Positions 8,891 through 64,000 of a stretch of DNA of 64,000 nt are shown here, piece after piece (position 1 is the first letter of the stretch; each line of letters begins with the position of its first letter). The stretch lies in the NCBI GenBank assembly GCA_036918135.1, contig JBALDB010000067.1:160001-224000 (forward strand), given 5' to 3'. The notes beneath the pieces are model-generated. The model was not told the DNA's origin. It did no database searches and was given only the letters and a program-made list of their open reading frames with translations. The position numbers were made by a program, and so were the translations under genes. The DNA comes from Nostoc sp. GTDB lineage: Bacteria; Cyanobacteriota; Cyanobacteriia; Cyanobacteriales; Nostocaceae.

Positions 8891-8930
8891 TTAAATAAAA
8901 GTTGCCATTTGATGCGGCAGAAATAGTATT

Positions 8931-10139: not shown

Positions 10140-10179
10140 TAGTATTTAAAATCTCAAAACTATTATCAAGGTATATTTC

Positions 10180-11046: not shown

Positions 11047-11202
11047 AAGTAATTTTCAGTAAATTTTTAACAACTATATAAGTGAATAAATAGCTAATAT
11101 GTTAGGTATTATATAAATAGTAAAATAATCAGATAAAGTTCTCAAATCTCAAACTTTAGTTACTACTGTTTTCTAAATAAATTATTAAAGATAGTTAAAA
11201 AG

Positions 11203-34906: not shown

Positions 34907-34928
34907 TACAGGAGGAATTTTATTTTAT

Positions 34929-39365: not shown

Positions 39366-39482
39366 TGTCAGCAAAGCGATCGCTCGAATCTTAATGACCT
39401 GTAGAATCGAATATTTTAGAGTTAAGCAGGCGTCATAATATTCTTACCGCAAAAACAAATTAAAAAAATATTGCAACCCAAT

Positions 39483-41123
39483 ATGACATCAAGCAAACAA
39501 GAAATGCTAAATAAAAATTCCTTTTTTGAATCTGAGCAAACATTCGATAATGGAATTGAAGAACAAGTAATGCAATTGTTTGCTTTATCCAATCAAGCGA
39601 CGTCTATCGAAAAACAAATCGATGAAATAACTGATAGCTGGTCGCAAGATTTTTTAAACACTATCGATTCTAATACCAATATTGATTTAGAGTTACTAAT
39701 AGAAAAATTTAGTGATAGTAAGATTCCCGTTCAACCTATCAATTTTGAGAACTATCTCAAATACATAGGTAACAATGTTGTTGCTCATTCAATACATACA
39801 TCTTCGCCACGATTTATTGGTCACATGACCTCGGCACTTCCTAGTTTTGTACGCCCTTTGGCTAAACTGATGACGGCAATGAACCAAAATGCCGTCAAAA
39901 TAGAAACAGCGAAAGCCCTAAGCTTTTGCGAACGCGAAGCTTTGGCTATGTTGCATAGACAAATTTATAATTTTTCTGATAATTTTTATACTCAACATAT
40001 TCAAAACAATTTGAGTACACTGGGAATTTTGGTTTCTGGTGGAACAGTGGCAAATATCACAGCAGTGTGGTGTGCGCGAAATGCTTCACTAGGCCCGAAA
40101 GATGGATTTCTTGGTGTAGAAAAAGAAGGTTTAGCAGCTGCTTTAGATTTCTATGGTTATAAAGGAGCAGTAATTATTGGCTCTGATTTGATGCATTTTT
40201 CTTTTGATAAAGCTGCGGATTTAATGGGCATTGGTACGAATAGTTTGATTAGAATTCCCGCTGACCGTAATAATCGAGTTGATATACAAGCACTGCGTCA
40301 AACTGTTGTCAACTGTCAAGCCAAAAACTTGCTGATTATTGCAATTGTCGGAGTTGCTGGAACAACAGACTCAGGTGGGGTTGATTCCCTAATAGATATC
40401 GCAGAAATTGCACACCAAGCCAATGCTCATTTTCATGTAGATGCTGCTTGGGGTGGGCCGCTAATTTTTTCTGAGCAATATCGACATAAGCTTGCTGGTA
40501 TAGAAAGAGCTGATTCAGTCACTATTGATGGACACAAACAACTATATCTACCAATGGGTATTGGTATGGTCTTTTTTAGCAATCCACAATTGGCTGGAGC
40601 GATCGAAAAACAGGCTAGTTATACCATGCGTAAGGGGTCGTTTGATTTAGGTAAACGTGCTTTAGAAGGTTCTCGGCCAGGCATGGCTTTATTTTTACAT
40701 GCCGGTTTAAAGCTGATTGGAGTTAAGGGATATGAGTTTTTGATTAATGAAGGAATCCGAAAAACTCAATACATGGCTGCTTGTATTTCAGCTATGCCTG
40801 AATTTGAATTGCTGACAGAACCCGATACTAATCTATTAATTTATCGCTATATTCCAAAACAATTTAGAAGAGTGCATAGTAAAAACAAATTGGCAGATAT
40901 AGATAATCAAATTATCAATAATTTTAATGAATGTTTACAAAAGCATCAGCGTCAAATTGGTCATACTTTCATTTCACGAACGACAAAAAAAGATATGAAG
41001 TTTGGCAGTGAAACTCCGATAGTTGCTATGCGGGCAGTGATTGCCAATCCTTTAACCACAGAAGAAGATATTCGCGCAGTTTTAAATGAGCAGATCCAAA
41101 TAGCTGCCCAAATTCAAATTTAA
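39483..41123 (+). CDS. Group II PLP-dependent decarboxylase, PanP-like aspartate 1-decarboxylase (beta-alanine supply)
   Basis: SPRFIGHMTSALP, SGGTVAN, HFHVDAAWGG, DSVTIDGHKQLY (PLP Lys), EGSRPG. ATG at 39483 preferred over TTG at 39471. Confidence 0.85.
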   Translation: MTSSKQEMLNKNSFFESEQTFDNGIEEQVMQLFALSNQATSIEKQIDEITDSWSQDFLNTIDSNTNIDLELLIEKFSDSKIPVQPINFENYLKYIGNNVVAHSIHTSSPRFIGHMTSALPSFVRPLAKLMTAMNQNAVKIETAKALSFCEREALAMLHRQIYNFSDNFYTQHIQNNLSTLGILVSGGTVANITAVWCARNASLGPKDGFLGVEKEGLAAALDFYGYKGAVIIGSDLMHFSFDKAADLMGIGTNSLIRIPADRNNRVDIQALRQTVVNCQAKNLLIIAIVGVAGTTDSGGVDSLIDIAEIAHQANAHFHVDAAWGGPLIFSEQYRHKLAGIERADSVTIDGHKQLYLPMGIGMVFFSNPQLAGAIEKQASYTMRKGSFDLGKRALEGSRPGMALFLHAGLKLIGVKGYEFLINEGIRKTQYMAACISAMPEFELLTEPDTNLLIYRYIPKQFRRVHSKNKLADIDNQIINNFNECLQKHQRQIGHTFISRTTKKDMKFGSETPIVAMRAVIANPLTTEEDIRAVLNEQIQIAAQIQI

Positions 41124-45859: not shown

Positions 45860-45894
45860 AACATGTTAACTTTACTTCAATTTATCTATATTTT

Positions 45895-48800: not shown

Positions 48801-50583
48801 AAAACTTGGTAAAAAATTTACTGTACTAGATAATTCTCGATATACTATTAATCCCGAAAATAATCAGGATTACAATACTTTAATCAAAGACCTGATTGTA
48901 CAAAACAAGCTGCCAAAAACGATTATTCATTTGTGGAGTGTTACACCTAGTAGCGAACAAGAATTAAAAATTGAAAAATTTGAGAAAACTCAAATAACGG
49001 GTTTCTATAGTTTGCTATATCTTGCCCAAGCTTTGGGAAGACAAGAAACTACAAATAATTTTAATATTAATGTTATTTCTAACAACCTACAAGCAGTAAC
49101 AGGAATTGAAGTAATTTTTCCAGAGAAAGCCACTTTACTCGGGCCAATTAAAGTTATTTCTCAAGAATATTCAAATATAAATTGTCGTAGTATTGATGTT
49201 ATATTACCACCTACAGGTAGCTGGCAAGAAGAAAAACTTTTAGACAGATTATTGGCAGAACTAACAGTTGATGATTCCCAAAAGCTAATTGCTTATCGAG
49301 GTAGCAATCGTTGGGTGCAAAGTTTTGAGCCTGTGCGCTTCGAGCAAGCTAAAATCCAAAAGCCTCAACTAAGAGAAAAGGGAGTCTATTTAATTACAGG
49401 TGGACTTGGGGGTATCGGACTTGTTTTGGCAGAATACTTGGCTCGAACTGTACAAGCAAAACTGCTGTTAGTCGGACGAACAGCTTTGCCAAAAAAAGAT
49501 GAGTGGGAAAAATGGCTGTCCACTCACGATGAAACTGATAGCACTAGCAATAAAATTCGTAAAGTTCAAGAACTTGAAGATTTAGGTGCAGAAGTTTTAG
49601 TAATCAGTGCTGATGTCAGCAACATCCAACAAATGCGAAGTGCTATTGCTGTTGCTCAACAGCAGTTTGGTCAACTTAATGGTGTTATCCACGCTGCTGG
49701 GGTTCCCGGAGGCGGTGTGATTGGGCGGAAAACTCAAGCAGAAGCAGAAAGTATTCTGGCTCCCAAGGTCAAAGGGACAATAGTTATTGATGCAATTGTC
49801 AAAGATATTCAATTAGATTTCCTGATTCTTACATCATCAAAAACCTCAATTTTAGGGGGATTTGGACAAGCAGATTATTGTGCTGCAAATGCTTTTCTTG
49901 ATGCCTTTGCCCATTATAACGCTTCCAAACATAACAGATTTACTATAAGTATTAATTGGGATAATTGGCAAGAAGTTGGGATGGCAGTAAACACCGAAGT
50001 GCCTCAACAACTCCAAGAATTACGAACAGAAAATCTCCAACAAGGAATATTGCCTGATGAAGGTGTAGATGCTTTTCTACGCATTTTAGAAAGTACAATG
50101 CCTCAAGTTGTAGTATCTACCTCTGACTTATTACATTCTACAAAACACTATACTTCTTACAACGAAAGCCAAGTACTCGAATTTTTAGAGACTGTCAATT
50201 TATCTAACTCAAAATATCCTCGACCGGAACTAAGTAATGATTATGTTGCTCCTCGAAATGAAATTGAGCAAAAGCTTGCTGATATCTGGCAACAAATCTT
50301 AGGAATTGATGAGGTAGGTCTGTACGACAATTTCTTTGAATTAGGAGGAGATTCACTACTAATAATTCAACTTCGCAGTCAAATTATAAAAGTTTTAAAC
50401 AAAAATATCCCAACTGCTAGCCTATTTGAATATTCAACTATCAGTGCTTTGGCTGAACATATCGGTGGAAAACAGCTTGAAGAACCGATATTTTGGAAAG
50501 CTGACGAACGTGCTAGCAAAAAAGAAGCGGCTATGCAAGAAAAAAGACAATTAATGAAACAAAGGAGGAAGTCAGATGGATAG
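45895..50583 (+). CDS. PKS module KS-AT(malonyl)-KR-ACP
   Basis: TYCSTS/HGTGT/NIGHL; GHSIG and HAFH; GGLGGIG, PKVKG, DYCAAN; GGDSL. Confidence 0.95.
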   Translation: MNTEIKQEETANIDVAIVGMSGRLPGAKNLDEFWHNLQNGIESISFFTNHDLVDLNLEEDILNNPNYVKAAPTLEDIELFDARFFGCSPKEAEAIDPQHRLFMECAWSSLENAGYDPETYKGLIGVYAGVSTNSYFFNNIYQNVNFINISTNYTLNKDFLTTNISYKLNLKGPSVGIQTYCSTSLVAVHLACKSLLDEECDIALAGGVTIVVPQKSGYFYEEDGILSPDGHCRAFDAKARGTIFGSGLGIVVLKRLKDAIADKDYIHAVIKGSAINNDGSLKVSYTAPSVNGQAEVIVEALANAGIDADDISYIETHGTGTATGDPVEIAALTKAFRAFTQKNGFCAIGSVKPNIGHLDIASGIASLIKTVLALKYKQIPPSLNFEAPNPEIDFANSPFYVNTKLTEWKANNTPRRAGVSSLGFGGTNAHVILEEAPEIKYFDDSRPWQLILVSAKTSSAIETATANLVTYLKQYPDTNLANVAHTLQVGRRAFNYRRMLVCQSVKDAVHVLETQEQERVFTVYQERREQPVIFMFSGQGAQYANMAEELYKIEPTFTKYVNNCAQILETYLGFDICHLLFPEEEKIAAASQQLQQTALTQSALFVIEYALAQLLMSWGVRPEAMIGHSIGEYVAATIAGVFSLEDALKIVAKRGQLMQQLPTGSMLAIRLAEKEVQLLLSAQTLYKNSLEIAVINSPSDCVVSGTNEAISVLENQLSSQGIECRLLHTSHAFHSVMMSPVLEPFVQAVKKVKLRPPRIRFISNVTGTWITDEQATNPDYWCQHLRQTVRFSDGISQLIKQFEGIFLEVGPGRTLSTITTKHLDKNAKQQVLTSLRHVKEQQSDVSFLSQTLGRLWLAGVEIDWSGFYTHEQRHRLPLPTYPFERQRYWIEPKKQGQDATQTQVSLAKKPDIADWFYIPFWKPSLPPVQLEHQELAFSKCNILVFIDECGLGINLVKRLEKQNQNVITVKLGKKFTVLDNSRYTINPENNQDYNTLIKDLIVQNKLPKTIIHLWSVTPSSEQELKIEKFEKTQITGFYSLLYLAQALGRQETTNNFNINVISNNLQAVTGIEVIFPEKATLLGPIKVISQEYSNINCRSIDVILPPTGSWQEEKLLDRLLAELTVDDSQKLIAYRGSNRWVQSFEPVRFEQAKIQKPQLREKGVYLITGGLGGIGLVLAEYLARTVQAKLLLVGRTALPKKDEWEKWLSTHDETDSTSNKIRKVQELEDLGAEVLVISADVSNIQQMRSAIAVAQQQFGQLNGVIHAAGVPGGGVIGRKTQAEAESILAPKVKGTIVIDAIVKDIQLDFLILTSSKTSILGGFGQADYCAANAFLDAFAHYNASKHNRFTISINWDNWQEVGMAVNTEVPQQLQELRTENLQQGILPDEGVDAFLRILESTMPQVVVSTSDLLHSTKHYTSYNESQVLEFLETVNLSNSKYPRPELSNDYVAPRNEIEQKLADIWQQILGIDEVGLYDNFFELGGDSLLIIQLRSQIIKVLNKNIPTASLFEYSTISALAEHIGGKQLEEPIFWKADERASKKEAAMQEKRQLMKQRRKSDG
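49429..49649 (+). repeat. 221-bp identical segment, copy 2 (KR region)
   Basis: Matches 44738-44958 at an offset of 4691. Confidence 0.85.
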
Positions 50584-53500
50584 CCAACAAATCCATGATT
50601 CCATCAAAGGCATAGCTGTAATCAGTATAGTTGGTCGTTTTCCAGAAGCCAAAAGTGTTGATGAATTTTGGCAGCATTTGTGCAATGGAGAAGAGACAAT
50701 TTCTTCGTTCAATGATGAAGAATTAAAAGCTTCAGGTGTAGACTCAGCTACGCTAAATAACCCTGAATATGTCAAAGCTGGCGCTCATCTTTCAGATATT
50801 GAAATGTTTGACGCTTCTTTCTTCGATTTCTCGCCCAAGGAAGCCGAAATCATGGATCCGCAACACCGGATTCTGCTTGAATGTGCTTGGGAAGCCCTAG
50901 AAACTGCTGGCTATGCTCCTGGATCTGAGAAAGAGTTGACTGGTGTTTATGTAGGAAATTTTATCAACGACTACTGGCTGAGTAGATTAAGTGTCAACCC
51001 TGAGATAATTGAATCAATGGGTTCATTAATTGAATTAAACAATAGTCATCATTATCCAGCTACAAGAATTTCATATAAATTAAACCTTAAAGGCCCAAGT
51101 ATAAATATTAGTACGGCTTGCTCTACATCATTAGTGGCTGTTCACTTAGCCTGCCAAGGATTGCTCAACTATGAGTGCGATTTAGCTTTGGCAGGTGGTA
51201 TTTCAATACAGTCTGTACAGAAGCAAGGTTATTTTTATCAAGAAGGGGGGATGACTTCCCCTGATGGTCGCTGTCGCGCCTTTGATGCTAAAGCAAATGG
51301 AACTATTTTTAGTGAGGGCGTAGGGATTGTCGTACTCAAGAGATTAGAGGATGCTTTAGCAGATGGGGACTGCATTCTTGCAGTGATTAAAGGTTCAGCT
51401 ATCAATAATGATGGAGCGGCTAAAGTAGGTTACACAGCTCCTAGCGTAGGTGGTCAAGCTTCAGTAATAGCTGAGGCTCAGGCGATCGCTGGATTTAATC
51501 CAGAGACAATTACCTATATCGAAACTCACGGAACGGGTACAAGCTTGGGAGATCCGATTGAGATTAGTGCCCTCAAGAAGGTGTTTGAATCCCGTACCAA
51601 AAAGAATGGATTTTGTGCTATTGGTTCGGTAAAGCCGAATGTTGGACATCCAAATATAGCAGCTGGCGTAACTAGTTTAATTAAAACGGTGATGGCACTG
51701 AAACACGGTTTGATTCCTCCTAGCTTACACTTTGAACATCCTAATCCGGAAATAGATTTTGCCAATAGTCCCTTTTACGTCAACACCAAATTATTAGAGT
51801 GGAAAACTAACGGTATACCCAAGAGAGCAGGTGTAAGTTCTTTTGGCATTGGCGGGACTAATGCTCATGTGATTTTGGAAGAAGCTCCAGTGATTGAGGC
51901 TTCGAGTTCCTCGCGTCCTTGGCAATTGCTTGTACTCTCAGCTAAAACCAGTTCAGCGCTGGAAACTCTGACAGCACAACTGTGTACTCATTTACAGCAA
52001 AATCCTGATATTCTCCTACCTGATATAGCTCATACCCTACAAGTTGGTCGTCGGGCTTTTGACTATCGCCGTTTCATTGTTTGCGATCGCCAAGAAGATG
52101 CAATAAAATTACTTAACAACCAAGACCCAATAGGTGTTTTTAGTCATCACCGCAAGCCTGGTCATTGTCCAGTCATCTTCATGTTTTCCGGACAAGGGGC
52201 GCAATATGCAAATATGGCAGAGGAACTATATGAAATTGAACCGACGTTTAAAAAACATGTAGATGCTTGCACTCTAATTTTGCAACCCTACCTCGGTCTT
52301 GATATCCGCTCCTTACTTTATCCCAAGAAAAAAGACACTGAAACTGCTTCAAAGCAATTACAACAAACAGCGCTGACACAACCAGCGTTATTTGTCATCG
52401 AGTATGCCCTAGCTCAGTTATTAATGTCATGGGGTGTGCTACCAGAGGCGATGATTGGTCACAGTATCGGGGAATATGTAGCAGCAACCATAGCAGGTGT
52501 ATTTTCCTTAGAGGATGCTTTAAAAATTGTGGCTAAAAGAGGAGAGTTGATGCAACAACTACCCTCTGGAAGTATGCTGGCAATTAAGCTTCCAGAAAAA
52601 GATGTGCAGTTGTTATTGGAATCAGAAACGCTCTATAAAAATTATCTCCAAATAGCAGCGATAAATAGCCCATCTTCTTGTGTTGTTTCTGGAACAAACG
52701 AGGCAGTTACGAGACTACAAAATCAATTATCTTCTCAAGAAGTTGAATCTCGGCTATTGCATACATCTCATGCGTTTCATTCACAAATGATGTCACCAAT
52801 ACTAGAAGCGTTTATTGAGGCAATAAAAAAAGTCAAACTCAATCCACCACGCATTCGCTTTATTTCTAATGTTACTGGTAGTTGGATTACAGATGCACAA
52901 GCGACAAATCCCAATTACTGGAGCCAACATCTACGACAAACTGTGAAATTTTCAGATGGAATATCTCTACTTTTAAAACAGTTTGAAGGTGTTTTTCTAG
53001 AGGTAGGGCCGGGACGAACTTTAAGTACTATTACTATACAGCATTTAAATATAAATGCTAAACAACAGGTACTAAGTTCATTACGCCATGTGAAAGACCA
53101 ACAATCTGATGTTAACTTTTTGTTGCAGACATTAGGTCGGTTGTGGCTTTTTGGTGTAGAGATTGACTGGTCGGGATTTTATGCTCACGAACAGCGTCAT
53201 CGTCTGCCTTTACCTACCTATCCTTTTGAGCGACAAAGATACTGGATTGATGCTAAATCCCCATCGCCTTCTTTAAATAGTAAGTCAGCAAAATTAGATT
53301 GTAAACAAGATATTGCCGACTGGTTTTATGTTCCTTCATGGAAACGCTCTTTGCTACGTAATTCATCCTCTGCTCAAATAGAATCTACACAAGACGATTG
53401 GCTATTTTTTCTTGATGAGTTGGGAATTGGAGAAAAATTAATCAATGCATTGATTAATCAAGGTAAAAATGTCATTACGGTTAAGCAAGGAGAGCAGTTT

Positions 53501-55249
53501 AAAAAACTAAGTAATGGTGTTTATATAATTAATCCATACAGATGCGAAGACTACAATGCTTTATTTGAAGAATTAATATTATTAGGAAAAACTATCCAAA
53601 ATATTGTTTATTTATGGAGTATCGGTAATCTAGAAAATCGCCATACCGAGAATTATTTAGAATTCAAGAGTTTATTGTTGATAACGCAGAACTTTAGTAA
53701 GCTAAAAAATAGCCGGATAGAGGGTAGTAAGGTTAAGGGCGATCGCTTACAACTTTGGGTTATATCAAACAACATTCAAGAAGTCAATGGTAATGAAAAA
53801 CTAAACCCTCAAAAAGCAACAATATTAGGTTTATGTAAAGTTATTCCTCAGGAATATTCTAATATTATCTGTCGATGTATTGATGTTGCCTTAACAAATC
53901 ACCAAAGCTCTGAGGATAAATTTGGAAAAGAAGGAAATTATCACAGTAACATTATCGACCAACTTTTAAGCGAGTTCACAGCTCTATCATCAGACTTGGT
54001 AGTTGCTTATCGCGATTTATATCGTTGGGTACAAACATTTGAGCCAGTTCGCTTAGAGTCAAAAGTTGGAGAAAAAATACCGTTGAAAAAACACGGTATT
54101 TACCTGTTTTTTGGGGGATTAGAAAGTATTGAAATTACGCTTGCAGAATATTTAGCCAAATCTCTACAAGCACAACTAATATTTATCGAGGATTTAGATT
54201 TTCCAGAAAAGGATAATTTCTCGCAATGGCTCGAAGCTCACATCGAAGAAGATGAAGTGAGTTGCAAAATCAAAAAATTATTAGTATTGGAGGAATTAGG
54301 TACAAAAGTTTTAGTAATGCGTGTAGATATAAGTAATTCTCAGCAAATTTACCAGAGTCTTACACCTGAAAATATCGGTCAAATTGATGGGGTTATCTAT
54401 TCGACTCGAATCAAGCGCGAAGATATATTTAGTTTGATTTCAGAAATTGGTAATTTAGAGTTAGAAAAGTTATTTGAGTCTCAAAATCGTCAGATTACTG
54501 TATTAGAAAAAGTCTTAGAAAACAGAAAATTAGATTTTTGTGTTGTCTTTTCTTCTTTATCTTCTATTTTAGGAGGATTCGGATTAGGTTTATATTCAGC
54601 AGCTAATCATTTTATAGATACCTTTACTAACCAACATAACCGAACTCATTCTTGGCCGTGGTACAGTATAAATTGGGATAAATTACAGCTCAATCCCATC
54701 CAAGAGCAAAAAGTACTGCGAGGATCTGGGGTAGAATTAGCTATTACTCCAACAGAAACTATAGAAGTATTTAAACGAATATTTTCTTTAGATAAAGGAA
54801 CTCAGGTTGTTGTTTCCACAGTAGATTTAAAAGCTAGGCGCGAGCGTACATTTGACATAGACTCTCTACCAGATTCAAAATCTTCCTCTCAAATAAACTC
54901 ATCCTCACACTACTCTAGACCTAATCTTAGTAATTCTTATGTTGCTTCGACAAATGAGTTAGAAAAACAAATTACCCAAATATGGCAAGACGTACTTGGG
55001 ATTGCAGAAATTGGTATTTACGACAACTTCTATGAGTTAGGAGGAGACTCCCTGATTGCAACTCAACTAATTTCTCGATTGCGGGCAAACTTTCCAGTAG
55101 ATTTACCCCTGCGTGACCTTTTATTACAAGCCATGATGCCTATCAAGCAGGCAGAAATGATTGAGCAACTTCTGGTAGAAAAAATTGAAGAATTATCTGA
55201 AGAAGAGGTAGAAATGCTTTTAGCTAATCATGCATATATTGATATATAG
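50576..55249 (+). CDS. PKS module KS-AT(malonyl)-KR(inactive)-ACP
   Basis: TACSTS/HGTGT/NVGHP; GHSIG and HAFH. The KR NADPH motif has decayed to FFGGLESIE, and HAAG and PKVKG are lost. GGDSL carrier; acidic docking tail. Confidence 0.93.
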   Translation: MDSQQIHDSIKGIAVISIVGRFPEAKSVDEFWQHLCNGEETISSFNDEELKASGVDSATLNNPEYVKAGAHLSDIEMFDASFFDFSPKEAEIMDPQHRILLECAWEALETAGYAPGSEKELTGVYVGNFINDYWLSRLSVNPEIIESMGSLIELNNSHHYPATRISYKLNLKGPSINISTACSTSLVAVHLACQGLLNYECDLALAGGISIQSVQKQGYFYQEGGMTSPDGRCRAFDAKANGTIFSEGVGIVVLKRLEDALADGDCILAVIKGSAINNDGAAKVGYTAPSVGGQASVIAEAQAIAGFNPETITYIETHGTGTSLGDPIEISALKKVFESRTKKNGFCAIGSVKPNVGHPNIAAGVTSLIKTVMALKHGLIPPSLHFEHPNPEIDFANSPFYVNTKLLEWKTNGIPKRAGVSSFGIGGTNAHVILEEAPVIEASSSSRPWQLLVLSAKTSSALETLTAQLCTHLQQNPDILLPDIAHTLQVGRRAFDYRRFIVCDRQEDAIKLLNNQDPIGVFSHHRKPGHCPVIFMFSGQGAQYANMAEELYEIEPTFKKHVDACTLILQPYLGLDIRSLLYPKKKDTETASKQLQQTALTQPALFVIEYALAQLLMSWGVLPEAMIGHSIGEYVAATIAGVFSLEDALKIVAKRGELMQQLPSGSMLAIKLPEKDVQLLLESETLYKNYLQIAAINSPSSCVVSGTNEAVTRLQNQLSSQEVESRLLHTSHAFHSQMMSPILEAFIEAIKKVKLNPPRIRFISNVTGSWITDAQATNPNYWSQHLRQTVKFSDGISLLLKQFEGVFLEVGPGRTLSTITIQHLNINAKQQVLSSLRHVKDQQSDVNFLLQTLGRLWLFGVEIDWSGFYAHEQRHRLPLPTYPFERQRYWIDAKSPSPSLNSKSAKLDCKQDIADWFYVPSWKRSLLRNSSSAQIESTQDDWLFFLDELGIGEKLINALINQGKNVITVKQGEQFKKLSNGVYIINPYRCEDYNALFEELILLGKTIQNIVYLWSIGNLENRHTENYLEFKSLLLITQNFSKLKNSRIEGSKVKGDRLQLWVISNNIQEVNGNEKLNPQKATILGLCKVIPQEYSNIICRCIDVALTNHQSSEDKFGKEGNYHSNIIDQLLSEFTALSSDLVVAYRDLYRWVQTFEPVRLESKVGEKIPLKKHGIYLFFGGLESIEITLAEYLAKSLQAQLIFIEDLDFPEKDNFSQWLEAHIEEDEVSCKIKKLLVLEELGTKVLVMRVDISNSQQIYQSLTPENIGQIDGVIYSTRIKREDIFSLISEIGNLELEKLFESQNRQITVLEKVLENRKLDFCVVFSSLSSILGGFGLGLYSAANHFIDTFTNQHNRTHSWPWYSINWDKLQLNPIQEQKVLRGSGVELAITPTETIEVFKRIFSLDKGTQVVVSTVDLKARRERTFDIDSLPDSKSSSQINSSSHYSRPNLSNSYVASTNELEKQITQIWQDVLGIAEIGIYDNFYELGGDSLIATQLISRLRANFPVDLPLRDLLLQAMMPIKQAEMIEQLLVEKIEELSEEEVEMLLANHAYIDI

Positions 55250-55364
55250 AGACTTTAAAAAGTAACGTAATTTTATTTTACTCATTATTAAAAACATTAT
55301 TTAAACTATAAATTTGGCAAAAAAATAATTGTAAATATTTACTTATAAATAGGAAAAATTGTTT

Positions 55365-56132
55365 ATGTCTGTAGCAACTAATTCTCTTATATCTTCAGTT
55401 AGCAATCTTCCAAATTATGAACCAATTGCTCGCTTACAGAACGAATTCAAGAATAGAGATGAATTTATAGTAGACGGTGTAATACCTTTTTTAGAGCAAA
55501 TATTATTTCCATATATTTCTAAAGAAGCGCGTATTCTCGACCTTGGTTGTGGTTGTGGACATTTAGTGCAACAGCTTCACCTGAAAGGGTATCAAATGAC
55601 TGGAATTGATGCATCTGAAGGATTATTGCATTATGCTCGAACAAACGCACCTGAGAGTGAATTCATCTTTGGTGATATACGCAACTTTGAGTTGCCACTT
55701 ACCTTCAATGCTATTATTTCAATCGATGTTTTACTTTTCATTCTTAATAATGAAGACTTGACAGCTATCTTCCGAAATGTATATGCAGCACTAGAGAACA
55801 AGGGTCTGTTCGTGTTTTCGATACCATTAATAGAATTGATGCATAAGCAGACTGAAGAGGGTTCTTTCAATCATATCTATGTCAATGATGAATGTGCTTT
55901 TATTGAATTATTTAACTACAATCCGGAAAAAAAGATGTGGAAAATTGAAGTTACCGGATTTGAATTAGTAGAAAAAACTTGGAAGCGTTCAGACACTACT
56001 TGGCTGAGAAAGGATCACTTATTCACAGATGTCCAATCGGCTTTAGAAAATGTGGGCTTCACAGAAATTAGTCATCTTGATGCTGGCGGGCTAGGAGGTA
56101 GCGCTTGCTTTGTTTGTCATAAACATGTCTAG
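55365..56132 (+). CDS. Class I SAM-dependent methyltransferase
   Basis: RILDLGCGCG, TGIDAS, GDIRNF. ATG at 55365 follows an AGGA RBS. Confidence 0.88.
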   Translation: MSVATNSLISSVSNLPNYEPIARLQNEFKNRDEFIVDGVIPFLEQILFPYISKEARILDLGCGCGHLVQQLHLKGYQMTGIDASEGLLHYARTNAPESEFIFGDIRNFELPLTFNAIISIDVLLFILNNEDLTAIFRNVYAALENKGLFVFSIPLIELMHKQTEEGSFNHIYVNDECAFIELFNYNPEKKMWKIEVTGFELVEKTWKRSDTTWLRKDHLFTDVQSALENVGFTEISHLDAGGLGGSACFVCHKHV

Positions 56133-56271
56133 TACGATAGTAAAATAACAGAGTTTTTGGTCTTCGTGGAAATCCCCTTTTCAACAATGAGATTACCGTA
56201 GTTTAATTATAATTATCTAGTTAAAAAAAGTAAGTGTTTGCAAGTTGTGATTCTTGAGATAACTTTTAATA

Positions 56272-59200
56272 ATGGATAAACAACACTCTAATTTATCACC
56301 AGCAAAAAAAGCTCTTTTAGAAAAATGGAAGGGAGGAAAATTTAAAGCTGATACTATTCCCAAACGTCAAATCACTGAGAGTATTCCTTTATCTTTCTCT
56401 CAACAAAGACTATGGTTTATTGACCAACTTTATCATGGAAGTTCTTTTTATAATATTCCTATCGTTTTTCAAATCAAAGGACAGCTTAGTATCACAGCAC
56501 TTGAGCAAAGTCTGAATAAAATTCTTCAGCGTCATGAAGTTTGGCGCACAACTTTTAAACTTGTAAATGGAGAGCCAATACAGGAGATTGTACCCCAATT
56601 AACTTGGGATTTACCCATTATAAATCTTGAGCATTTGTCTGGTAAAGATTGGGAAGGAGAAGTTAAACAACTTGTAGCCAAAGAAGCAACAAAACCGTTT
56701 AATTTAGCTAAAGGACTTTTAGTTAGAGCGATTTTACTTCGCTTAAGTGAAGAAGAACATGTTTTGCTTGTGACCATGCACCACATTATCACTGATGGAT
56801 GGTCTTGCGGTGTGTTCCTGCGCGAGTTGTCAACGCTATACGCTGCTTTCTCGACAAATCAACCTTCCCCCTTACCCGAACTCCCGATTCAGTATGCAGA
56901 TTTTACAATTTGGCAGCGCGATCGCATTCAAGGTAAATTTTTAGCAACCCAATTAAATTATTGGAAACAACAACTCAAAGGTGAACTACCTGTACTACAA
57001 TTACCTACAGACTATCTACGACCTCATGTTACTACTTTTACTGGTGCTAAGCAATACTTTACATTCTCTAAAGCTCTGACTGATGCATTAAGACAATTAA
57101 GCCAGCAAGCAGATGCTACTTTATTTATGAGTTTGCTGGCTGCATTTAATATTTTACTATACCGCTACACAGACCAAGAAGATATCTTAATTGGTTCTCC
57201 AATTGCCAACCGCAACCGCACCGAATTAGAAGGAATGCTGGGATTATTTGTTAATACTTTGGTATTACGTAATAACCTCAGTGGTAATCCTAGTTTTTAC
57301 GAACTTTTACATCGAGTTCGTGAGGTGACTCTCGATGCTTATGCACATCAAGATTTACCTTTCGAGATGCTTGTAGAAGAATTACAACCCGAACGAGACT
57401 TAAGTCGAAATCCACTTTATGAAGTCATGTTTGTCCTGCAAAACAGTCCGGTATCTGTGCAGGAGGTTTCTGGTTTAACCTTGCGTACTTTAGACTTTGA
57501 TAGCGGTACAGCTCAACTAGATATTTTCCTGTCGATGTTTGAATCCCAAGAGGGATTAACAGGATGTTTGGAGTACAATACAAATATTTTTGATTCAACA
57601 ACTATTAGCCAATTTATTTGTCATTTCCAGACTTTATTAGAAAGTATCATTGCTAATCCAGAGCAACACATCTGTGAATTATCACTTTTAACTGCTTTTG
57701 ATAGAGAACAATTATTATTTAAATTTAATCAAACTATTGCAGATTATCAAGATGTACCTTTGCATCAATTATTTGAGCACCAAGTTGAACTAACACCTGA
57801 CTTTTTGGCATTAATTCATCAGTCACAAGAACTAACTTATCGTCAACTTAACCACAGAGCTAATCAACTTGCACATTATTTAGAAAAACAGGGTGTAACA
57901 ACAGAAACCCTGGTTGCTATATGTCTAGAACGTTCTCTAGATATGGTAGTGGGAATTTTAGCTGTCCTCAAAGCTGGCGGAGCCTATATTCCTCTCGATC
58001 CAAGTTATCCAGTTGAGCGTTTAAGTTTTATGCTCTCTGATTCTCAAGCATCGATATTAATTAGCCAACAGGAAATATTAGAAAAACTCTTATTATCTTC
58101 AGCTAAAACTGTTTGCTTGGATATCCATAAAGACAAAATTGCTCAAGAAAGTCAAGAAAATCCGATTAGCAAATCACAAGCTGATAATCTTGCTTATATT
58201 ATCTATACCTCTGGCTCAACTGGAACTCCTAAAGGCGTTCTTGGCACCCATCGCGGTACACTAAACGGCTTACACTGGTTATGGAAAACTTATCCTTTCA
58301 CTCCAGAAGAAGTTTGTTGTCAGAAAACAGCTATTAGTTTTGTAGACTCTGTATGGGAAATTTTTGCTCCTTTACTTCAAGGAATTCCTACAGTAATTAT
58401 CAGCAATCAAACTCTACTAGACCCGCAGCTATTTATCGAAGCTTTGGCACATTATCAAGTTACCCGGATTATACTTGTACCCTCACTACTGCATTTATTT
58501 TTAGATAATTATCATTATTTAACTAAGAAATTATCACAATTAAAACTTTGGATAACTAGCGGGGAAGCACTATCTACTAACTTAGCTAAAACTTTTCGAG
58601 AATTGATGCCATTTGCAAAACTAATTAATCTTTACGGCTCATCGGAAGTTTCTGCCAACACTACTTACTACGATTCCAGTTTATTACAAGACCAAGCCAA
58701 TAGTGTCCCTATCGGTCGTCCTATTGACAATACTCAAATCTATGTCTTAAATCGCCATTTACAACTAACACCTGTAGGAGTTGTTGGAGAACTTTATGTT
58801 GGTGGTGACGGATTGGCAAGGGGTTATTTGCATCGTCCAGAATTGACTCAAGAAAGATTTATTGATAACCCTTTTATTAAAGGAACTAAACTTTACAAAA
58901 CAGGTGATTTAGCACGCTATCTCATAGATGGTAATTTAGAATATTTGGGTCGCCGTGATGAACAAGTAAAAATTCGAGGATTCCGAGTAGAATTAGGTGA
59001 AATTGCAACTGCGATCGCTCAACATCCAGATGTGCAAGAATCTGTTGTGATTGCCAGCAATGATACTCAAGAAAATCAGCGTTTGATTGCCTATGTCGTC
59101 ACAGATAAGCAGGATATAGCTGCACAACTATTGCCAGATTTGCAACAGAAGTTACCTAGTTATATGTTACCATCTGCCTTTGTAGTATTAAATGCGCTCC

Positions 59201-60366
59201 CACTAACACCTAATGGCAAAGTAGATAAACGTTCTCTGACTATAAATCAAGTTATCCGACCCAATACTACGCAATCCTTCGTTGCTCCTCGTAATTTTAC
59301 AGAATTATCATTAGTAAAACTTTGGGAAAAGCTTCTAGATACTAATCCTATCGGGGTAACAGATAACTTCTTCGACTTGGGTGGTCATTCATTTTTAGCT
59401 GTACGCTTAATCGCTCAAATTCATGACAGATTTGAGCATAATCTTACTCTATCTACTCTTTTTGAAAACCCAACAATTGAAAAACTAGCAGCCATCGTTA
59501 GTCAGCCATCACGCTATAGTTCTAATTCTCCTTTAGTAGCAATTAACTCCAATGGTGACAAGATACCTTTCTTCTGTATGCATGGTGCTGGGGGAGGCAT
59601 TAATAACTACTTTATATTGTCTAGGAGACTTGGTGAGGACTATCCATTTTATGCCTTAGAACATAACCCAGAGCAAGACCTACCTGAAATTATTTCAGTC
59701 GAGGAAACTGCAACTCGCTACCTCAAAGAAATTCGTCGAGTACAACCAAATGGCCCTTATCTTTTAGGTGGTCATTGTTACGGTGGTGTAATTGCTTTTG
59801 AAATGGCGCAGCAATTACAAAAGCAAGGTCAAACAGTAGGTTTATTAGTTATTATCGATACCATCCTATCAGAAATACGTATTGAATCTACAAAAGATGA
59901 TGATGCAAAATTCTTACTCAGGATGGCAGAATCGATAAAAACCAACAACAATATAGATTTTTCAATTCCTTTTGAGGAACTTCGAGTTTTATCACTAAAT
60001 GAGCAATTTCATTTAGTAAATCAAAAAGCAAACTTTATCTTTAGTGATACAGAGGTTGAAGATTTTTTTCATTATTACAAACTTTTCAAAGCACATGTTC
60101 AAGCCATGCGAAATTATATTCCCCAAGTTTATTCTCAATCTATAACTCTGTTTCGAGCTAAGGAGGAGATTATTCATGACTTTGACAATCCAGAATGGAG
60201 TACTGATGACCCATTATTAGGCTGGGGTAAATATTATAGTCAACCTATTCAAGTAATTGAAGTTCCTGGCGATCATTTCTCGATATTCGTTGACCCTCAT
60301 ATTCAAGAATTAGCTAAACATCTGAGAAATTGTATCGATAATGCTGTGTGCAAACTAAATAGTTGA
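56272..60366 (+). CDS. Terminal NRPS C-A[beta-Ala]-T-TE (Cys nucleophile)
   Basis: C HHIITDGWS; A4 reads FVDSVWE, code VDWIISLANK (beta-Ala-type); T GGHSFL; TE GHCYG...IIDT...PGDHF. Confidence 0.93.
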   Translation: MDKQHSNLSPAKKALLEKWKGGKFKADTIPKRQITESIPLSFSQQRLWFIDQLYHGSSFYNIPIVFQIKGQLSITALEQSLNKILQRHEVWRTTFKLVNGEPIQEIVPQLTWDLPIINLEHLSGKDWEGEVKQLVAKEATKPFNLAKGLLVRAILLRLSEEEHVLLVTMHHIITDGWSCGVFLRELSTLYAAFSTNQPSPLPELPIQYADFTIWQRDRIQGKFLATQLNYWKQQLKGELPVLQLPTDYLRPHVTTFTGAKQYFTFSKALTDALRQLSQQADATLFMSLLAAFNILLYRYTDQEDILIGSPIANRNRTELEGMLGLFVNTLVLRNNLSGNPSFYELLHRVREVTLDAYAHQDLPFEMLVEELQPERDLSRNPLYEVMFVLQNSPVSVQEVSGLTLRTLDFDSGTAQLDIFLSMFESQEGLTGCLEYNTNIFDSTTISQFICHFQTLLESIIANPEQHICELSLLTAFDREQLLFKFNQTIADYQDVPLHQLFEHQVELTPDFLALIHQSQELTYRQLNHRANQLAHYLEKQGVTTETLVAICLERSLDMVVGILAVLKAGGAYIPLDPSYPVERLSFMLSDSQASILISQQEILEKLLLSSAKTVCLDIHKDKIAQESQENPISKSQADNLAYIIYTSGSTGTPKGVLGTHRGTLNGLHWLWKTYPFTPEEVCCQKTAISFVDSVWEIFAPLLQGIPTVIISNQTLLDPQLFIEALAHYQVTRIILVPSLLHLFLDNYHYLTKKLSQLKLWITSGEALSTNLAKTFRELMPFAKLINLYGSSEVSANTTYYDSSLLQDQANSVPIGRPIDNTQIYVLNRHLQLTPVGVVGELYVGGDGLARGYLHRPELTQERFIDNPFIKGTKLYKTGDLARYLIDGNLEYLGRRDEQVKIRGFRVELGEIATAIAQHPDVQESVVIASNDTQENQRLIAYVVTDKQDIAAQLLPDLQQKLPSYMLPSAFVVLNALPLTPNGKVDKRSLTINQVIRPNTTQSFVAPRNFTELSLVKLWEKLLDTNPIGVTDNFFDLGGHSFLAVRLIAQIHDRFEHNLTLSTLFENPTIEKLAAIVSQPSRYSSNSPLVAINSNGDKIPFFCMHGAGGGINNYFILSRRLGEDYPFYALEHNPEQDLPEIISVEETATRYLKEIRRVQPNGPYLLGGHCYGGVIAFEMAQQLQKQGQTVGLLVIIDTILSEIRIESTKDDDAKFLLRMAESIKTNNNIDFSIPFEELRVLSLNEQFHLVNQKANFIFSDTEVEDFFHYYKLFKAHVQAMRNYIPQVYSQSITLFRAKEEIIHDFDNPEWSTDDPLLGWGKYYSQPIQVIEVPGDHFSIFVDPHIQELAKHLRNCIDNAVCKLNS

Positions 60367-61760
60367 TGGGAGTACAAAAGCTGATGAAATTACCCCCAGG
60401 GCCGAAAACTCCTTCTTGGTTGATAGGTCTGCAATTCGAGATCGATCCTTTTGGCTATATGGACGCTATTTCTAAACGTTATGGTGATATCGTCACTTTA
60501 ATGTTTGGTTCTACACCAATTGTTTATATCAATAATCCCTTAGGAATAAAGGAAATTTTCACAAATACCAAGGAAATTGCTGCTAGGGGTGAGTTGAACC
60601 AAGATTTCGCTTTGATGACAGGAAATCAAGGAGTTTTGCAACTTGATGGCTTAATTCATAAAAATCGGCGTAAGCTGTTAATGCAATCTTTTCACGGAGC
60701 GCGAATGCAAGCTTGTGGGCGGCGTATTTGTGAACTCACAGAAAAGATGATGAATAAACAAGTGATTGGAAAACCTTTTGTTGCCTACCCAACAATTGAA
60801 GATATCACCTTACGAGTGGGTATAGAAGTTGTAATGGGTTTGGATAAAGGTGAGCGCTGTGAGAAAATCAAACAATTATTTGTATATGCGCTCAGAATCG
60901 GACAGTCTCTTAGAGATAAGATTCTGGTGAATATTTTTGGACAACGGAATTTAGGTCAATGGAGTCCAGAGGGGTATCGTCTTCACTTGAGACGAGAACT
61001 TTTTCAATTGCTATCGGCTGAGGTTAAAGAACGGCGATTGCAAGCAGATTTTTCCCGCTCTGATATGCTCTCGGATCTAATTTTTGCTTGTGATGAAACA
61101 GGCGAAACATTAAGTGATGAAGAGGTGCGTGACCTGTTATTATCGCCGATATTTGCGGCTGGTGATGCTTCTGGAACTGCAATTACTTGGGCATTATATT
61201 GGATTCACCGTTTGAAAGATGTTCGCTCGCGCCTGCTATCAGAACTCGATAGCCTTGGTGAAAATCCAGACCCGATGAGTATTGTCGCATTACCTTACCT
61301 AAATGCTGTTTGTAATGAAGCTTTGCGAATTTACCCGACTCAGTTGTTTGCATTTCCCAGGTTGGTAGAATCGACCGTTGAGGTCATGGGTTACCAGTTG
61401 AATCCTGGTACAATACTTATTGCAAATATTTATTCCACACACCAACGCGAAGATTTATACCCTGCTGCAAAAGAATTTAATCCAGAGCGCTTTTTAGAAA
61501 AACAATTTTCTCCCTATGAATTTTTGCCATTTGGCGGCGGTTCTCGTGTGTGTATCGGCGGAACTTTTGCCTTATTTGAAATGAAACTTATATTAGCAAC
61601 TATTCTTTCACGTTATCAATTAGAGCTAGTTAGTAAGCGTCCAGAACGTCCCAAATATGGAGGTCTGATTTGTTACCCAGCTAGCGGCGTCAAGATGCTC
61701 ATGCGTGGTCGGCGTCAACATCAAGAACAGTCGCAGACTTTCGCTGTCGGTTCAGTTTAA
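60366..61760 (+). CDS. Cytochrome P450 (CYP110-like)
   Basis: LPPGP N-terminus, EALR, PERF, FGGGSRVCIG heme motif. The ATG overlaps the upstream TGA (TGATG); alternative start 60384. Confidence 0.94.
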   Translation: MGVQKLMKLPPGPKTPSWLIGLQFEIDPFGYMDAISKRYGDIVTLMFGSTPIVYINNPLGIKEIFTNTKEIAARGELNQDFALMTGNQGVLQLDGLIHKNRRKLLMQSFHGARMQACGRRICELTEKMMNKQVIGKPFVAYPTIEDITLRVGIEVVMGLDKGERCEKIKQLFVYALRIGQSLRDKILVNIFGQRNLGQWSPEGYRLHLRRELFQLLSAEVKERRLQADFSRSDMLSDLIFACDETGETLSDEEVRDLLLSPIFAAGDASGTAITWALYWIHRLKDVRSRLLSELDSLGENPDPMSIVALPYLNAVCNEALRIYPTQLFAFPRLVESTVEVMGYQLNPGTILIANIYSTHQREDLYPAAKEFNPERFLEKQFSPYEFLPFGGGSRVCIGGTFALFEMKLILATILSRYQLELVSKRPERPKYGGLICYPASGVKMLMRGRRQHQEQSQTFAVGSV

Positions 61761-61797
61761 CACCTATCAAAAACTTAATTTTTATAAAAAAATACTA

Positions 61798-63180
61798 ATG
61801 AAACTACCAGATGGCCCAAAAACTTCTCCCCGATCGCTCGCTGATGAATTTAAGACCAATCCCCTTGGATTCATGGATGCTATGGGCGATCGCTATGGTG
61901 ATATTTTCACTATTATGGCTGGTTCTACACCTTTAGTGATAGTCAGCAATCCAGAGGGGATAAAGCAGATTTTTACCAGTGCTAAAGAGATTACAGCTTC
62001 TGGTAAGTTGAACCAAGGCGGTGCGCCACTAGTGGGAAACAACGGGTTACTGATGCTTGACGGCTTGCGCCACAAACATCGCCGTCAGTTGTTGATGCCT
62101 CCTTTGCACGGAACTCGCATCAAAGTATATGGGCAACGCATCTGTCAAGTAACAGATCGAGTCATCAACGATTTGGTGCTAGGGGAAACTTTTATTGCTT
62201 ACTCTACTGTACAAAAAATTACCCTAGAGGTAATACTGCAAGCTTTGTTTGGTTTGTACGCAGGAGAGCGTTACGAACAATTTAAGCAAATACTTTCCAA
62301 GTTACTCATTTTTGCCCGGTCTCCCTGGCTGGGGTTATCTCTGGCTTATCCCTTTCTCCGAAAAGATTTAGGGCGTTGGACTCCTTGGGGATATTGGCTT
62401 CATCTCCAACAACAATTTGACAAACTACTCTATGCTGAAATTAGCGAACGCCGAGCAAAAGTAGATCCAACTCGCACCGATGTCCTCTCTGAACTACTCT
62501 TTGCTCGTGATGAAACAGGTCAACCAATGACCAACGAGGATATACGCGATTTGTTTCCCTCATTACTATTAGGTGGTCAAGATGCCTCAGCCACCGCCAT
62601 AACTTGGTCATTGTACTGGGTTCACCATTCAAAAGATGTCCGCGAACGATTGCTGGCAGAACTTGATACTCTTGGTGAATCTCCAGATCCGATGGCTATT
62701 GCTGCGCTACCCTACCTCAGTGCTGTTTGTAATGAAGCACTGCGAATTTACCCAACTCAAGTAGTCACTTTTCCCAGATTAATAGAATCACCAATTGAAG
62801 TAATGGGCTATGAATTGAGTCCAGGTACAGTCATTAGAGGCTGTATTTATCTGACACATCAGCGTCAGGACTTATACCCACAACCACAGGAATTCAAACC
62901 AGAACGGTTTCTGGAGCGACAATACTCTCCCTATGAATTTCTACCATTCGGGGGCGGCGCTCGCCGCTGTCCGGGCGAGGTGTTAGCACTTTTTGAAATG
63001 AAGTTAGTTTTAGCAACAATTCTCTGTCGCTATCAACTAGCACTAGCTGATGAACAAAGAGCAGAAAAACCCAAGGCTATAGGTGTTAACTATCCCCCTG
63101 CGAGTGGCTTAAAAATGGTAATGCTTGGTAAACGCCAGCGCCCAGCAAAGCCACAGCAGTTCGTTGCTAATTCAGCATAA
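61798..63180 (+). CDS. Cytochrome P450 (CYP110-like), paralogue of the upstream P450
   Basis: Start MKLPDGPKT chosen by homology to the neighbour; EALR, PERF, FGGGARRCPG. Confidence 0.94.
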   Translation: MKLPDGPKTSPRSLADEFKTNPLGFMDAMGDRYGDIFTIMAGSTPLVIVSNPEGIKQIFTSAKEITASGKLNQGGAPLVGNNGLLMLDGLRHKHRRQLLMPPLHGTRIKVYGQRICQVTDRVINDLVLGETFIAYSTVQKITLEVILQALFGLYAGERYEQFKQILSKLLIFARSPWLGLSLAYPFLRKDLGRWTPWGYWLHLQQQFDKLLYAEISERRAKVDPTRTDVLSELLFARDETGQPMTNEDIRDLFPSLLLGGQDASATAITWSLYWVHHSKDVRERLLAELDTLGESPDPMAIAALPYLSAVCNEALRIYPTQVVTFPRLIESPIEVMGYELSPGTVIRGCIYLTHQRQDLYPQPQEFKPERFLERQYSPYEFLPFGGGARRCPGEVLALFEMKLVLATILCRYQLALADEQRAEKPKAIGVNYPPASGLKMVMLGKRQRPAKPQQFVANSA

Positions 63181-63243: not shown

Positions 63244-64000
63244 ATGATTGAAAAAATCGAGCCATTAGGAACAGGAACAGGAAAAATAGTATACAGTACT
63301 AACAATTGTGAAGATATTTTACACTTTTCTAAAGCGGAAATTCTGGATTTATTCAAGTTATCTGGAGTTATTCTTTTTCGAGGTTTTGGAGTAACTCCCA
63401 TACAGATGAAAGCTTTTTCTGAAAAATTCAGTCATAGCTACCTTAAAGATCCCACGAAAGGAAGTCTTGACTCGGTTGATTTTGTTAACTCAGTAGATAC
63501 CGGAATGGGTGCTAGTGCTGCTCATACAGAACATGGTTCTAGTCCTTATCAACCCGATGTTATTTGGTTTTGCTGTACAACCCCTGCACAAGAAGGAGGT
63601 GAAACTCTATTTTGGGATGGTATCCAACTTTGGAAGGAAATGAGCAAACATACCAAACAGTTATTTATTGATAAAAAACTCAAGTTTACTTTTGAAGATG
63701 TGCCATTAGATGTATTAAATCAATGGGTTGATTGTGGTGAAACCATTGATGATTGCAAGCAAGTCTTGGATCGATTTGAGGATTTTAATTATCAAATAAA
63801 TGAAGATTCAAGCTTTTCTTTAAAATATCTTTGCTCAGCTGTCGTAAAAACCAAGTATGGAAATCAAGATGCATTTGCCAACTTCGCTTGGACAGCTCAC
63901 GCTCGCGGATGGGAGATTTTTGAAGATGGTTCAAAGTTTTCTGAGGAAGTCGTTGATGAACTTGAGAAACTTTTCGACAAGTTGACGCAAGAAATCTCTT
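63244..64000 (+). CDS. TauD/TfdA-family Fe(II)/2-oxoglutarate dioxygenase, 3'-truncated (absent from the ORF track)
   Basis: Manual translation: MIEKIEPLG...GVILFRGF...AAHTEHG...PDVIWFCCTTPAQEGGETLFWDG. The frame stays open to the window end. Confidence 0.88.
   Translation, partial: MIEKIEPLGTGTGKIVYSTNNCEDILHFSKAEILDLFKLSGVILFRGFGVTPIQMKAFSEKFSHSYLKDPTKGSLDSVDFVNSVDTGMGASAAHTEHGSSPYQPDVIWFCCTTPAQEGGETLFWDGIQLWKEMSKHTKQLFIDKKLKFTFEDVPLDVLNQWVDCGETIDDCKQVLDRFEDFNYQINEDSSFSLKYLCSAVVKTKYGNQDAFANFAWTAHARGWEIFEDGSKFSEEVVDELEKLFDKLTQEIS

Follow-up and report, generated by a model that had tools for sequence, protein, structure and literature searches.

How does a long biosynthetic assembly line let go of its chain when its last ketoreductase looks dead, its last building block looks like beta-alanine, and the nucleophile of its thioesterase is a cysteine? 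The question is raised by a stretch of Nostoc sp. DNA, called here the window (64,000 nt; positions 160,001 to 224,000 of contig JBALDB010000067.1, or C67:160001-224000, in a 7.66-Mb genome). Unless another locus is named, positions are those of the window, and all features described are on its + strand. By Pfam domain search, one large gene cluster for hybrid nonribosomal peptide synthetases (NRPS) and polyketide synthases (PKS) occupies it, and the segment of interest reads as the end of a hybrid line primed by a fatty acyl-AMP ligase (FAAL). Comparison with known systems suggests, as the best reading if still a tentative one, that the terminal thioesterase (TE) releases the chain by Dieckmann condensation, as an acyl-dihydropyridone.

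The last PKS module (50576..55249) has the Pfam domains ketosynthase, acyltransferase, ketoreductase, and acyl carrier protein (KS-AT-KR-ACP), with intact motifs in the KS (Cys/His/His), AT (GHSxGE/HAFH), and ACP (GGDSL). Its KR (54095..54682, residues 1174-1369 by Pfam) is designated KR0, for inactive, on several grounds. It scores 71.8 bits against the Pfam KR model, vs. 126-175 bits for the window's four sister KRs. Its NADPH-binding motif has degenerated to GGLESIEITLA (54113..54145), where three sisters have GGLGG(I/V)GLVLA and ORF10 has GGLGDIGLVLA, and IFIED replaces the sisters' L(T/V)GR. Gln1303 (SQNRQI vs. PKVKGT in the KR alignment, 54479..54496) stands 37 residues before Tyr1340, at what we take to be the catalytic Lys site; a Lys is present there in three of the four sisters but not in ORF10. 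The Ser and Tyr1340 are retained. Judged from these motifs, the KR is dead and the beta-keto group very probably kept, as the initial annotation had proposed from the missing NADPH motif.

Related loci tell the same story. A scan of one genome per species yielded 74 loci, 49 of them with a TE at least 62% identical to that of the window; unless noted otherwise, counts below refer to these 49. The same degenerate KR is found in the last PKS module of 43, with Gln at the Lys position in all 43, and four (L025, L053, L054, L059) have a KR-less KS-AT-ACP module. The last PKS modules of the other two were not scorable, one (L035) being too short and one (L036) containing 776 N, so the last module is non-reducing in every relative that can be assessed. 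Within the window, the KR encoded at 28877-34906 (its residues 1174-1369) may be inactive too: the Gly-rich NADPH motif is kept, the Lys is absent (SSTGYG), and His replaces the sisters' Asn.

The building block added to this ketide would be beta-alanine. A gene at 39471..41123 encodes a pyridoxal phosphate (PLP)-dependent aspartate 1-decarboxylase, PanP (612.9 bits to the NCBIfam equivalog TIGR03799, cutoff 606.1), which should be able to make beta-alanine from aspartate. The terminal NRPS module (56272..60366 by Pfam; condensation, adenylation, thiolation, and TE domains, C-A-T-TE) has 120 homologues at 75-100% identity over T-TE, and its C (HHIITDG) and T (GGHSF) motifs look intact. In its A domain, the A4 motif FVDSVWE (58339..58359) opens the extracted ten-residue signature VDWIISLANK, in which Asp235 is replaced by Val and an Asp is displaced to position 236. 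The register is confirmed by a HMMER alignment to LgrA (sfVDsvWeif vs. ifDIsvAeif), and is sound, as other A domains of the window and the loci yielded familiar signatures when extracted in this way. Among 50 cassette A domains, 37 have VDWIISLANK, ten VDWVISLANK, and three variants of these. This signature is identical at 8-9 of 10 positions to ..SLADK signatures from other modules of the related clusters, the cassette form ending in ANK. The ..SLADK form is presumably a beta-Ala code; a full-text literature search for the beta-Ala signature strings returned no match, and the kasichelin paper gives no code.

The classification of the terminal module as beta-Ala-type, already made in the initial annotation, draws on more than the displaced Asp, namely the PanP equivalog in the cluster, PanP homologues in related loci, and a gene fusion. 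In 32 loci a PanP homologue (at least 60% identity) precedes the terminal NRPS; in the others the flank is too short, or more PKS modules intervene. In P0124 (1883 aa, a 50%-cluster representative), annotated by the Joint Genome Institute (JGI) as a putative aspartate 1-decarboxylase, a Pyridoxal_deC domain is fused N-terminally to a C-A-T-TE with Cys in the TE (GWCYGG) and the signature VDWVISLANK. Four loci from other families (L085, L086, L087, L091) have two beta-Ala-type modules, one with a ..SLADK signature directly before PanP and a terminal one with ..SLANK, with a single KS-AT-ACP module between the two.

The T domain of the terminal module (59311..59496; Pfam PP-binding, residues 1014-1075) carries its Ser in GGHSF at 59380-59394, and fused behind it is the TE (59569..60324, residues 1100-1351; PF00975, 98.9 bits vs. 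a gathering score of 26.4), an alpha/beta hydrolase of EntF/AB3403 type. The nucleophile is Cys1169, codon TGT, in GHCYG (59770..59784, residues 1167-1171; translation LLGGHCYGG), exactly where the initial annotation had placed it. Its predicted triad partners are Asp1196, after strand beta5 (VIIDTI, 59848..59865), and His1335 (PGDHFS, 60265..60282), which fall in the invariant columns D120 and H259 of an alignment of 36 TEs. The Cys is found in all 120 close homologues of T-TE and all 49 related loci, so its presence is not due to chance.

An AF2 model of the TE (predicted local distance difference test, pLDDT, 86.3; predicted template modeling score, pTM, 0.89) was compared with solved structures. 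The best match among the entries listed is the AB3403 TE (VIA Z 29.8, root mean square deviation 2.9 A, 272 residues), which is also top by sequence (phmmer E 1.5e-29) and by Foldseek (TM 0.79, 30% identity), and in the phmmer alignment likewise has Cys at the nucleophile position (GGWCFGG). The Pks13, NocB, and EntF TEs follow at Z 22-26, and ObiF1 (Z 21.1) and SulM (Z 20.9) are far below AB3403. Sequence and model both place the domain among ordinary in-cis type I TEs of the EntF/AB3403/Pks13 group, with an alpha/beta-hydrolase fold and a helical lid. NcmC was absent from 45 Protein Data Bank (PDB) sequence hits (E <=0.01) and 50 VIA-align entries, an absence that does not exclude kinship.

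The same set of parts recurs from genome to genome. The cassette core consists of PanP, a non-reducing last PKS module, C-A-T-TE(Cys), and an adjoining P450. Its nucleophile motif is GHCYGG in 43 loci, GFCYGG in five, and GWCYGG in one, with the codon TGT in 48 and TGC in one. Upstream of PanP the loci vary, and the number of PKS modules that separate PanP from the terminal module ranges from one to three. TE matches (E <=1e-80) come from 123 of the 388 genomes of other species in the window's family, from 64 of 126 genomes of its genus and 24 of 68 genera, and from six of 200 genomes sampled evenly across the order; these genome collections overlap the 74 loci, so that the counts are not independent. 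From these comparisons the cassette appears to be widely conserved in the family, and an orphan: a partial literature search, with most subscription journals outside it, found no description of the cassette or of a cyanobacterial pyridone, dihydropyridone, or Cys-TE product, which is not proof of absence.

The adjoining oxidase is as regular a part as the others. In the window, the start codon of a first cytochrome P450 gene (60363..61760; Pfam p450, 237.6 bits) overlaps the TE stop codon (TGATG), and a second P450 gene follows (61705..63180, 244.7 bits). Of the 48 loci that could be assessed, 47 (L017 among them) have a P450 homologue that begins 0-302 nt past the TE gene; in L025 it is 4 kb off, beyond a TonB receptor, and L035 has no downstream sequence and hence was not assessable. 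There is a second P450 within 6 kb in 28 loci. The best solved-structure matches of the P450, CYP120 and CYP51, are uninformative on function.

Eight more distant cassettes (TE identity 54-62%; a ninth, an apparent duplicate, was dropped) all have the Cys, and all have a VDW.. or GDW.. signature. Their last PKS is KS-AT-ACP in five and has a degenerate KR in two; L083 has none in the 7.5 kb upstream. The L083 locus (G414:C21) has its own order: halogenase, P450, PanP, C-A-MT-T-TE(Cys), with an embedded methyltransferase (MT), then a class II aldolase and a PanE-like reductase.

What the cysteine by itself can say is limited. Among 184 aligned TE stretches from the 150 nearest 50%-cluster representatives, the nucleophile is Ser in 141, Cys in 35, and another residue in eight. 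The related loci contain 14 further TEs (at most 37% identity), 13 of them with Ser; the other, in L072, gave no motif-scan hit and has Cys in the alignment. Cys also occurs elsewhere: several large NRPSs (P0133, P0134, P0137, P0140, P0142, P0145) have two Cys TE-like domains (GYCFGG), the internal ones with Asn for the triad Asp and the C-terminal ones with Asp (Glu in P0140); P0142 is represented by its internal Cys stretch only.

One related locus offers a natural comparison. In a midpoint-rooted FastTree of 250 TE stretches, the Ser-TE of L082 nests within the Cys clade (the nodes that enclose it have support of 0.87 and 1.0); no other Ser member does so. The locus (G502:C12:172929-192900) encodes DH-ER-ACP, KS-AT-KR0-ACP, and C-A(Ala-type)-nMT-T-TE(Ser), followed by a penicillin-amidase-family protein, an ABC transporter, and HlyD. 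Such a layout is classical for 3-acyl-tetramates, and an N-methyl 3-acyl-tetramate would be the predicted product. The pairing of Ser with an Ala-type module in a tetramate layout points the same way as the Dieckmann reading for Cys with a beta-Ala-type module.

Dieckmann release is favored here because the gene set parallels the kirromycin end-game part for part. For kirromycin, the accessible text of PMC5818483 and PMC9361827 describes KirD as an aspartate decarboxylase, KirB as a beta-Ala NRPS forming the last module, and KirHI as the enzyme that off-loads the chain while forming the pyridone ring; the C5=C6 bond depends on the P450 KirOI, deletion of which gives 5,6-dihydrokirromycin, and in aurodox an extra methyltransferase decorates the pyridone. 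So far as these portions go, the window shares with kirromycin and aurodox an aspartate decarboxylase in the cluster, a beta-Ala NRPS as last module, a hydrolase-fold off-loader with a thiol, an adjoining P450, and optional methyltransferases (acting on the ring in kirromycin and aurodox). It differs in having an in-cis EntF/AB3403-type TE instead of a free-standing KirHI/NcmC-type cyclase, the PLP enzyme PanP as decarboxylase, a cyanobacterial host, and a FAAL-primed lipopeptide-polyketide chain; the A signature of AurB, as given in the available text, is DTLQLGVIWK, vs. VDWIISLANK here.

Among other off-loading enzymes, the NcmC-type Dieckmann cyclases (TrdC, SlgL, NcmC) are described in the accessible part of PMC10956176 as having a Cys-Asp-His triad on an alpha/beta-hydrolase core, with C89S killing BpdE; the triad, the core, and the presumed N-(beta-ketoacyl)-aminoacyl thioester substrate would all be shared with the window TE. 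They are, however, discrete proteins of ~260-280 aa with a four-helix-bundle subdomain that mostly make five-membered tetramates, whereas the window TE is fused to C-A-T. The in-cis tetramate Dieckmann TEs covered in the same text are C-terminal and release a beta-ketoacyl-aminoacyl chain by a C-C bond, the layout that L082 has with Ser; they combine Ser-Asp-His with alpha-amino acids and five-membered rings, as against Cys, a beta-Ala-type module, and a predicted six-membered ring. ObiF1 and SulM are in-cis NRPS TEs with a GxCxG motif, and ring closure by ObiF needs the Cys, according to the available portion of PMC6668435, but the rings they form are four-membered and come from beta-hydroxy- or beta-amino-alpha-amino acids, whereas the window A domain lacks Asp235 and is paired with PanP; in ObiF, moreover, the triad is RifR-like with its Asp on beta6, and in the window TE the Asp comes after beta5. 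AB3403 (A. baumannii, PDB 4ZXH) has the same C-A-T-TE architecture, Cys nucleophile, and Asp after beta5; in its case no link to a non-reducing PKS module or PanP was seen.

By the proposed chemistry, the T domain very probably carries an N-(beta-ketoacyl)-beta-alanyl thioester; this substrate, named in the initial annotation, is strongly supported by the comparison of loci, with a non-reducing last PKS in all assessable relatives, PanP, and the P450. The chain would move to Cys1169, where the C2 methylene, activated by the ketone on one side and the amide carbonyl on the other, would attack the enzyme thioester, the Dieckmann condensation freeing a 3-acyl-4-hydroxy-5,6-dihydropyridin-2-one; transfer and ring release, taken jointly, fall somewhat short of being probable. 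It is more doubtful that the adjacent P450 would go on to desaturate the ring at C5=C6, the part played by KirOI in kirromycin, or to hydroxylate it. Decoration of the head group could fall to the optional methyltransferase and the short-chain dehydrogenase/reductase (SDR). Ring closure, P450 function, and metal binding are all inferences.

What makes Dieckmann closure the best reading is where conservation falls, namely on the final two building blocks: the ketide is unreduced, the beta-amino acid comes with an enzyme to supply it, the nucleophile is a thiol, and an oxidase is encoded alongside. Alternatives must be weighed against that pattern. Hydrolysis is the default outcome for a TE, and the Cys-TE might do no more than release a linear N-(3-oxoacyl)-beta-alanine, its Cys being a trait of the lineage. 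Cys-TE lineages do stand behind ordinary alpha-amino-acid modules, and the closest structure, AB3403, is an EntF-type Cys TE with no known ring-forming role, described as uncharacterized in the accessible text of PMC6668435. We regard simple hydrolysis as unlikely, though a serious contender. The Cys is kept in 49 of 49 loci although TGT is a single base from the Ser codons AGT and TCT, and there is a strict coupling between this Cys, a last PKS module that does not reduce, and an A domain of beta-Ala type. Ser should also be the better nucleophile for a hydrolase, since in ObiF the change from Cys to Ser shifts the outcome toward hydrolysis (PMC6668435, as far as available). Should the TE merely hydrolyze, the finding would shrink to a conserved but ordinary termination module.

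The TE might instead macrocyclize the chain, with an amine or hydroxyl further upstream as the nucleophile; a polyol OH could come from the two reducing PKS modules, or a Ser or Thr residue could offer its side chain. Candidate groups are present, with two active KR modules directly upstream (41180-50583) and Ser- and Thr-type A domains in the line, and many type I TEs of closest fold are cyclases, for example those of Vlm2 and NocB. What speaks against it is that the end cassette is conserved while the preceding chain varies (one to three PKS modules, or different NRPS modules, after PanP), so that a nucleophile at a fixed distance is not conserved; with every conserved part local to the last two building blocks, macrocyclization seems rather improbable. 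Alternatively, the beta-keto group could be lost to the stand-alone SDR, acting in trans either while the chain is still carrier-bound or once it is free, to leave a reduced head group. An SDR homologue (at least 45% identity) does lie downstream in 38 loci, beside the MATE exporter gene (41 loci). The SDR is missing, however, from seven cassettes with full flanks, and so behaves as optional tailoring, while its position behind an exporter gene would fit modification after release; we give such a reduction little credence. Least plausible by a good margin is attack of the amide nitrogen on the thioester to form a strained four-membered ring, an N-acyl beta-lactam. As a nucleophile, an amide nitrogen falls well short of the active methylene beside it. 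An N-acyl-beta-alanyl thioester would supply the right atoms, and the in-cis Cys-TEs with proven special chemistry yield beta-lactones or beta-lactams (PMC6668435, available portion), but ObiF1 and SulM are those that fall far below AB3403 in fold similarity, and the beta6 Asp of ObiF contrasts with the Asp after beta5 in the EntF/AB3403-type window TE. Also, the embedded methyltransferase of the related Cys-TE module in L083 would, if it N-methylates, remove the amide N-H.

Several points weigh against Dieckmann release itself. The TE is of EntF/AB3403 type and does not look close to NcmC, ObiF1, or SulM, and the nearest solved structure among the entries listed, AB3403, has no characterized reaction. 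The step from Cys to Dieckmann chemistry is weaker than the initial annotation had implied: several other Cys-TEs follow Val-, Leu-, Asn-, Gly-, or Ala-type A domains, so that Cys alone is not diagnostic, and the published in-cis Dieckmann TEs use Ser (PMC10956176, accessible part). The contrast of Ser/Ala with Cys/beta-Ala depends on one case, since a search of 389 genomes for further relatives of the L082 Ser-TE returned only L082 itself and one Cys relative, and the placement of L082 in the tree is supported at 0.87 only. The terminal signatures end in ANK and those of other beta-Ala-type modules in related clusters in ADK, so the terminal module may take a different beta-amino acid. In four of the eight distant cassettes (L084, L086, L087, L089), no P450 hit was found in the ~7-8 kb downstream that were searched. 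The stand-alone SDR, conserved as it is, could reduce the ketone, and the cassette is an orphan.

The remaining genes of the region would tailor or move the product. A stand-alone class I S-adenosylmethionine (SAM) methyltransferase (55359..56132; Pfam Methyltransf_25/11), probably for optional tailoring, lies between the last PKS and the NRPS, as one does in 31 loci; its best solved-structure matches, generic SAM methyltransferases, are uninformative. There are two apparent subtypes of cassette, one with the methyltransferase and the SDR, and one with neither and usually two P450s. Seven of the latter have full 10-kb downstream flanks (L020, L021, L022, L026, L028, L030, L036), and the SDR and methyltransferase are taken as optional because these seven lack both. 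A TauD/TfdA-type dioxygenase identified by Pfam (63244..63999, running past the window edge) is found in only five related loci. Past the window edge, the cluster goes on with genes for a Suc_Fer-like protein, a MATE exporter, an SDR, and an O-methyltransferase; besides the MATE and SDR genes already counted, the Suc_Fer-like protein is found in 31 loci and the O-methyltransferase in ten.

A TonB-dependent receptor with an AMIN domain is encoded inside the cluster (25277..27907; Pfam TonB_dep_Rec_b-barrel, Plug, AMIN), with intergenic gaps of 0.5 and 1.0 kb on either side, and TonB receptors adjoin two other cassettes. Such a receptor fits a metal-binding role for the proposed tricarbonyl head group; it does not show that the head group is the metal ligand. 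An iron-responsive NRPS-PKS cluster, all2635-all2650 of Anabaena/Nostoc PCC 7120, was reportedly described around 2008. AMIN-domain receptors have been linked to cyanochelin uptake in the available part of a 2026 preprint. Known cyanobacterial metallophore clusters were considered as matches and rejected, none having this end cassette in the accessible descriptions: the last unit of cyanochelin B is an ethanolamine formed by a reductase, cyanochelin C leaves by reductive release, and the fatuamide A line closes with a Gly module and then a terminal C domain.

The rest of the line is long and varied. It begins upstream of the window with FAAL-ACP-C-A-T, followed by KS-AT-cMT-KR-ACP and a group of extender-unit genes (FkbH-domain protein, 3-hydroxyacyl-CoA dehydrogenase, small ACP-like ORF, acyl-CoA dehydrogenase); then come a Cupin_8 protein, C-A-nMT-T-C, C-A-T-C-A-T, and the TonB receptor. 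Beyond this are KS-AT-KR-ACP-C, C-A(luciferase-like monooxygenase)-T, the PLP decarboxylase, and the two KS-AT-KR-ACP modules; the last PKS, methyltransferase, C-A-T-TE, two P450s, and the TauD-type dioxygenase complete the cluster in the window. The extender genes (7768-12270) form a complete-looking hydroxymalonyl-/methoxymalonyl-ACP set, including an 82-aa ACP-like ORF at 8642-8890 and an FkbH-domain protein (TIGR01686, 271 bits). Despite this set, all five AT domains of the window have HAFH, a motif we assume to be malonyl-type. In the 28877-39365 region, a PKS module with a C domain at its end is followed by a protein that opens with a second C domain; the A domain there, mid-line and directly before PanP, has a Gly-like signature and an embedded luciferase-like monooxygenase, an arrangement associated with terminal-amide formation in myxobacteria. 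In L080 (13291-15832, the part upstream of the window), two tandem paralogues with DUF3102/UPF0137 domains stand directly before the FAAL gene with which the cluster opens.

Dieckmann off-loading to a pyridone is already known; what would be new is the carrier, an unusually widespread orphan cassette, for which GHCYGG, VDW(I/V)ISLANK, PanP, and a KR-less last PKS module together provide a genome-mining handle. One bold extension, which we consider unlikely as a whole, is that about one third of the species of the family carry a portable "pyridone-capping" cassette, in which a type I TE changed from Ser to Cys acts as a six-ring Dieckmann cyclase and P450s convert its product to an iron-binding 4-hydroxy-2-pyridone or an N- or C-hydroxylated pyridone; the result would be an unrecognized class of acyl-pyridone lipopeptide metallophores, exported by MATE and taken up via AMIN-domain TonB receptors. 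If the Dieckmann reading is right, six-membered closure via a cysteine acyl-enzyme would be a new reaction for type I TE domains, and a concrete head group could be assigned to an orphan cassette with the breadth noted above (123 of 388 other species in the family, 64 of 126 genomes in the genus). Cyanobacteria would then have arrived at the pyridone logic of kirromycin using different parts.

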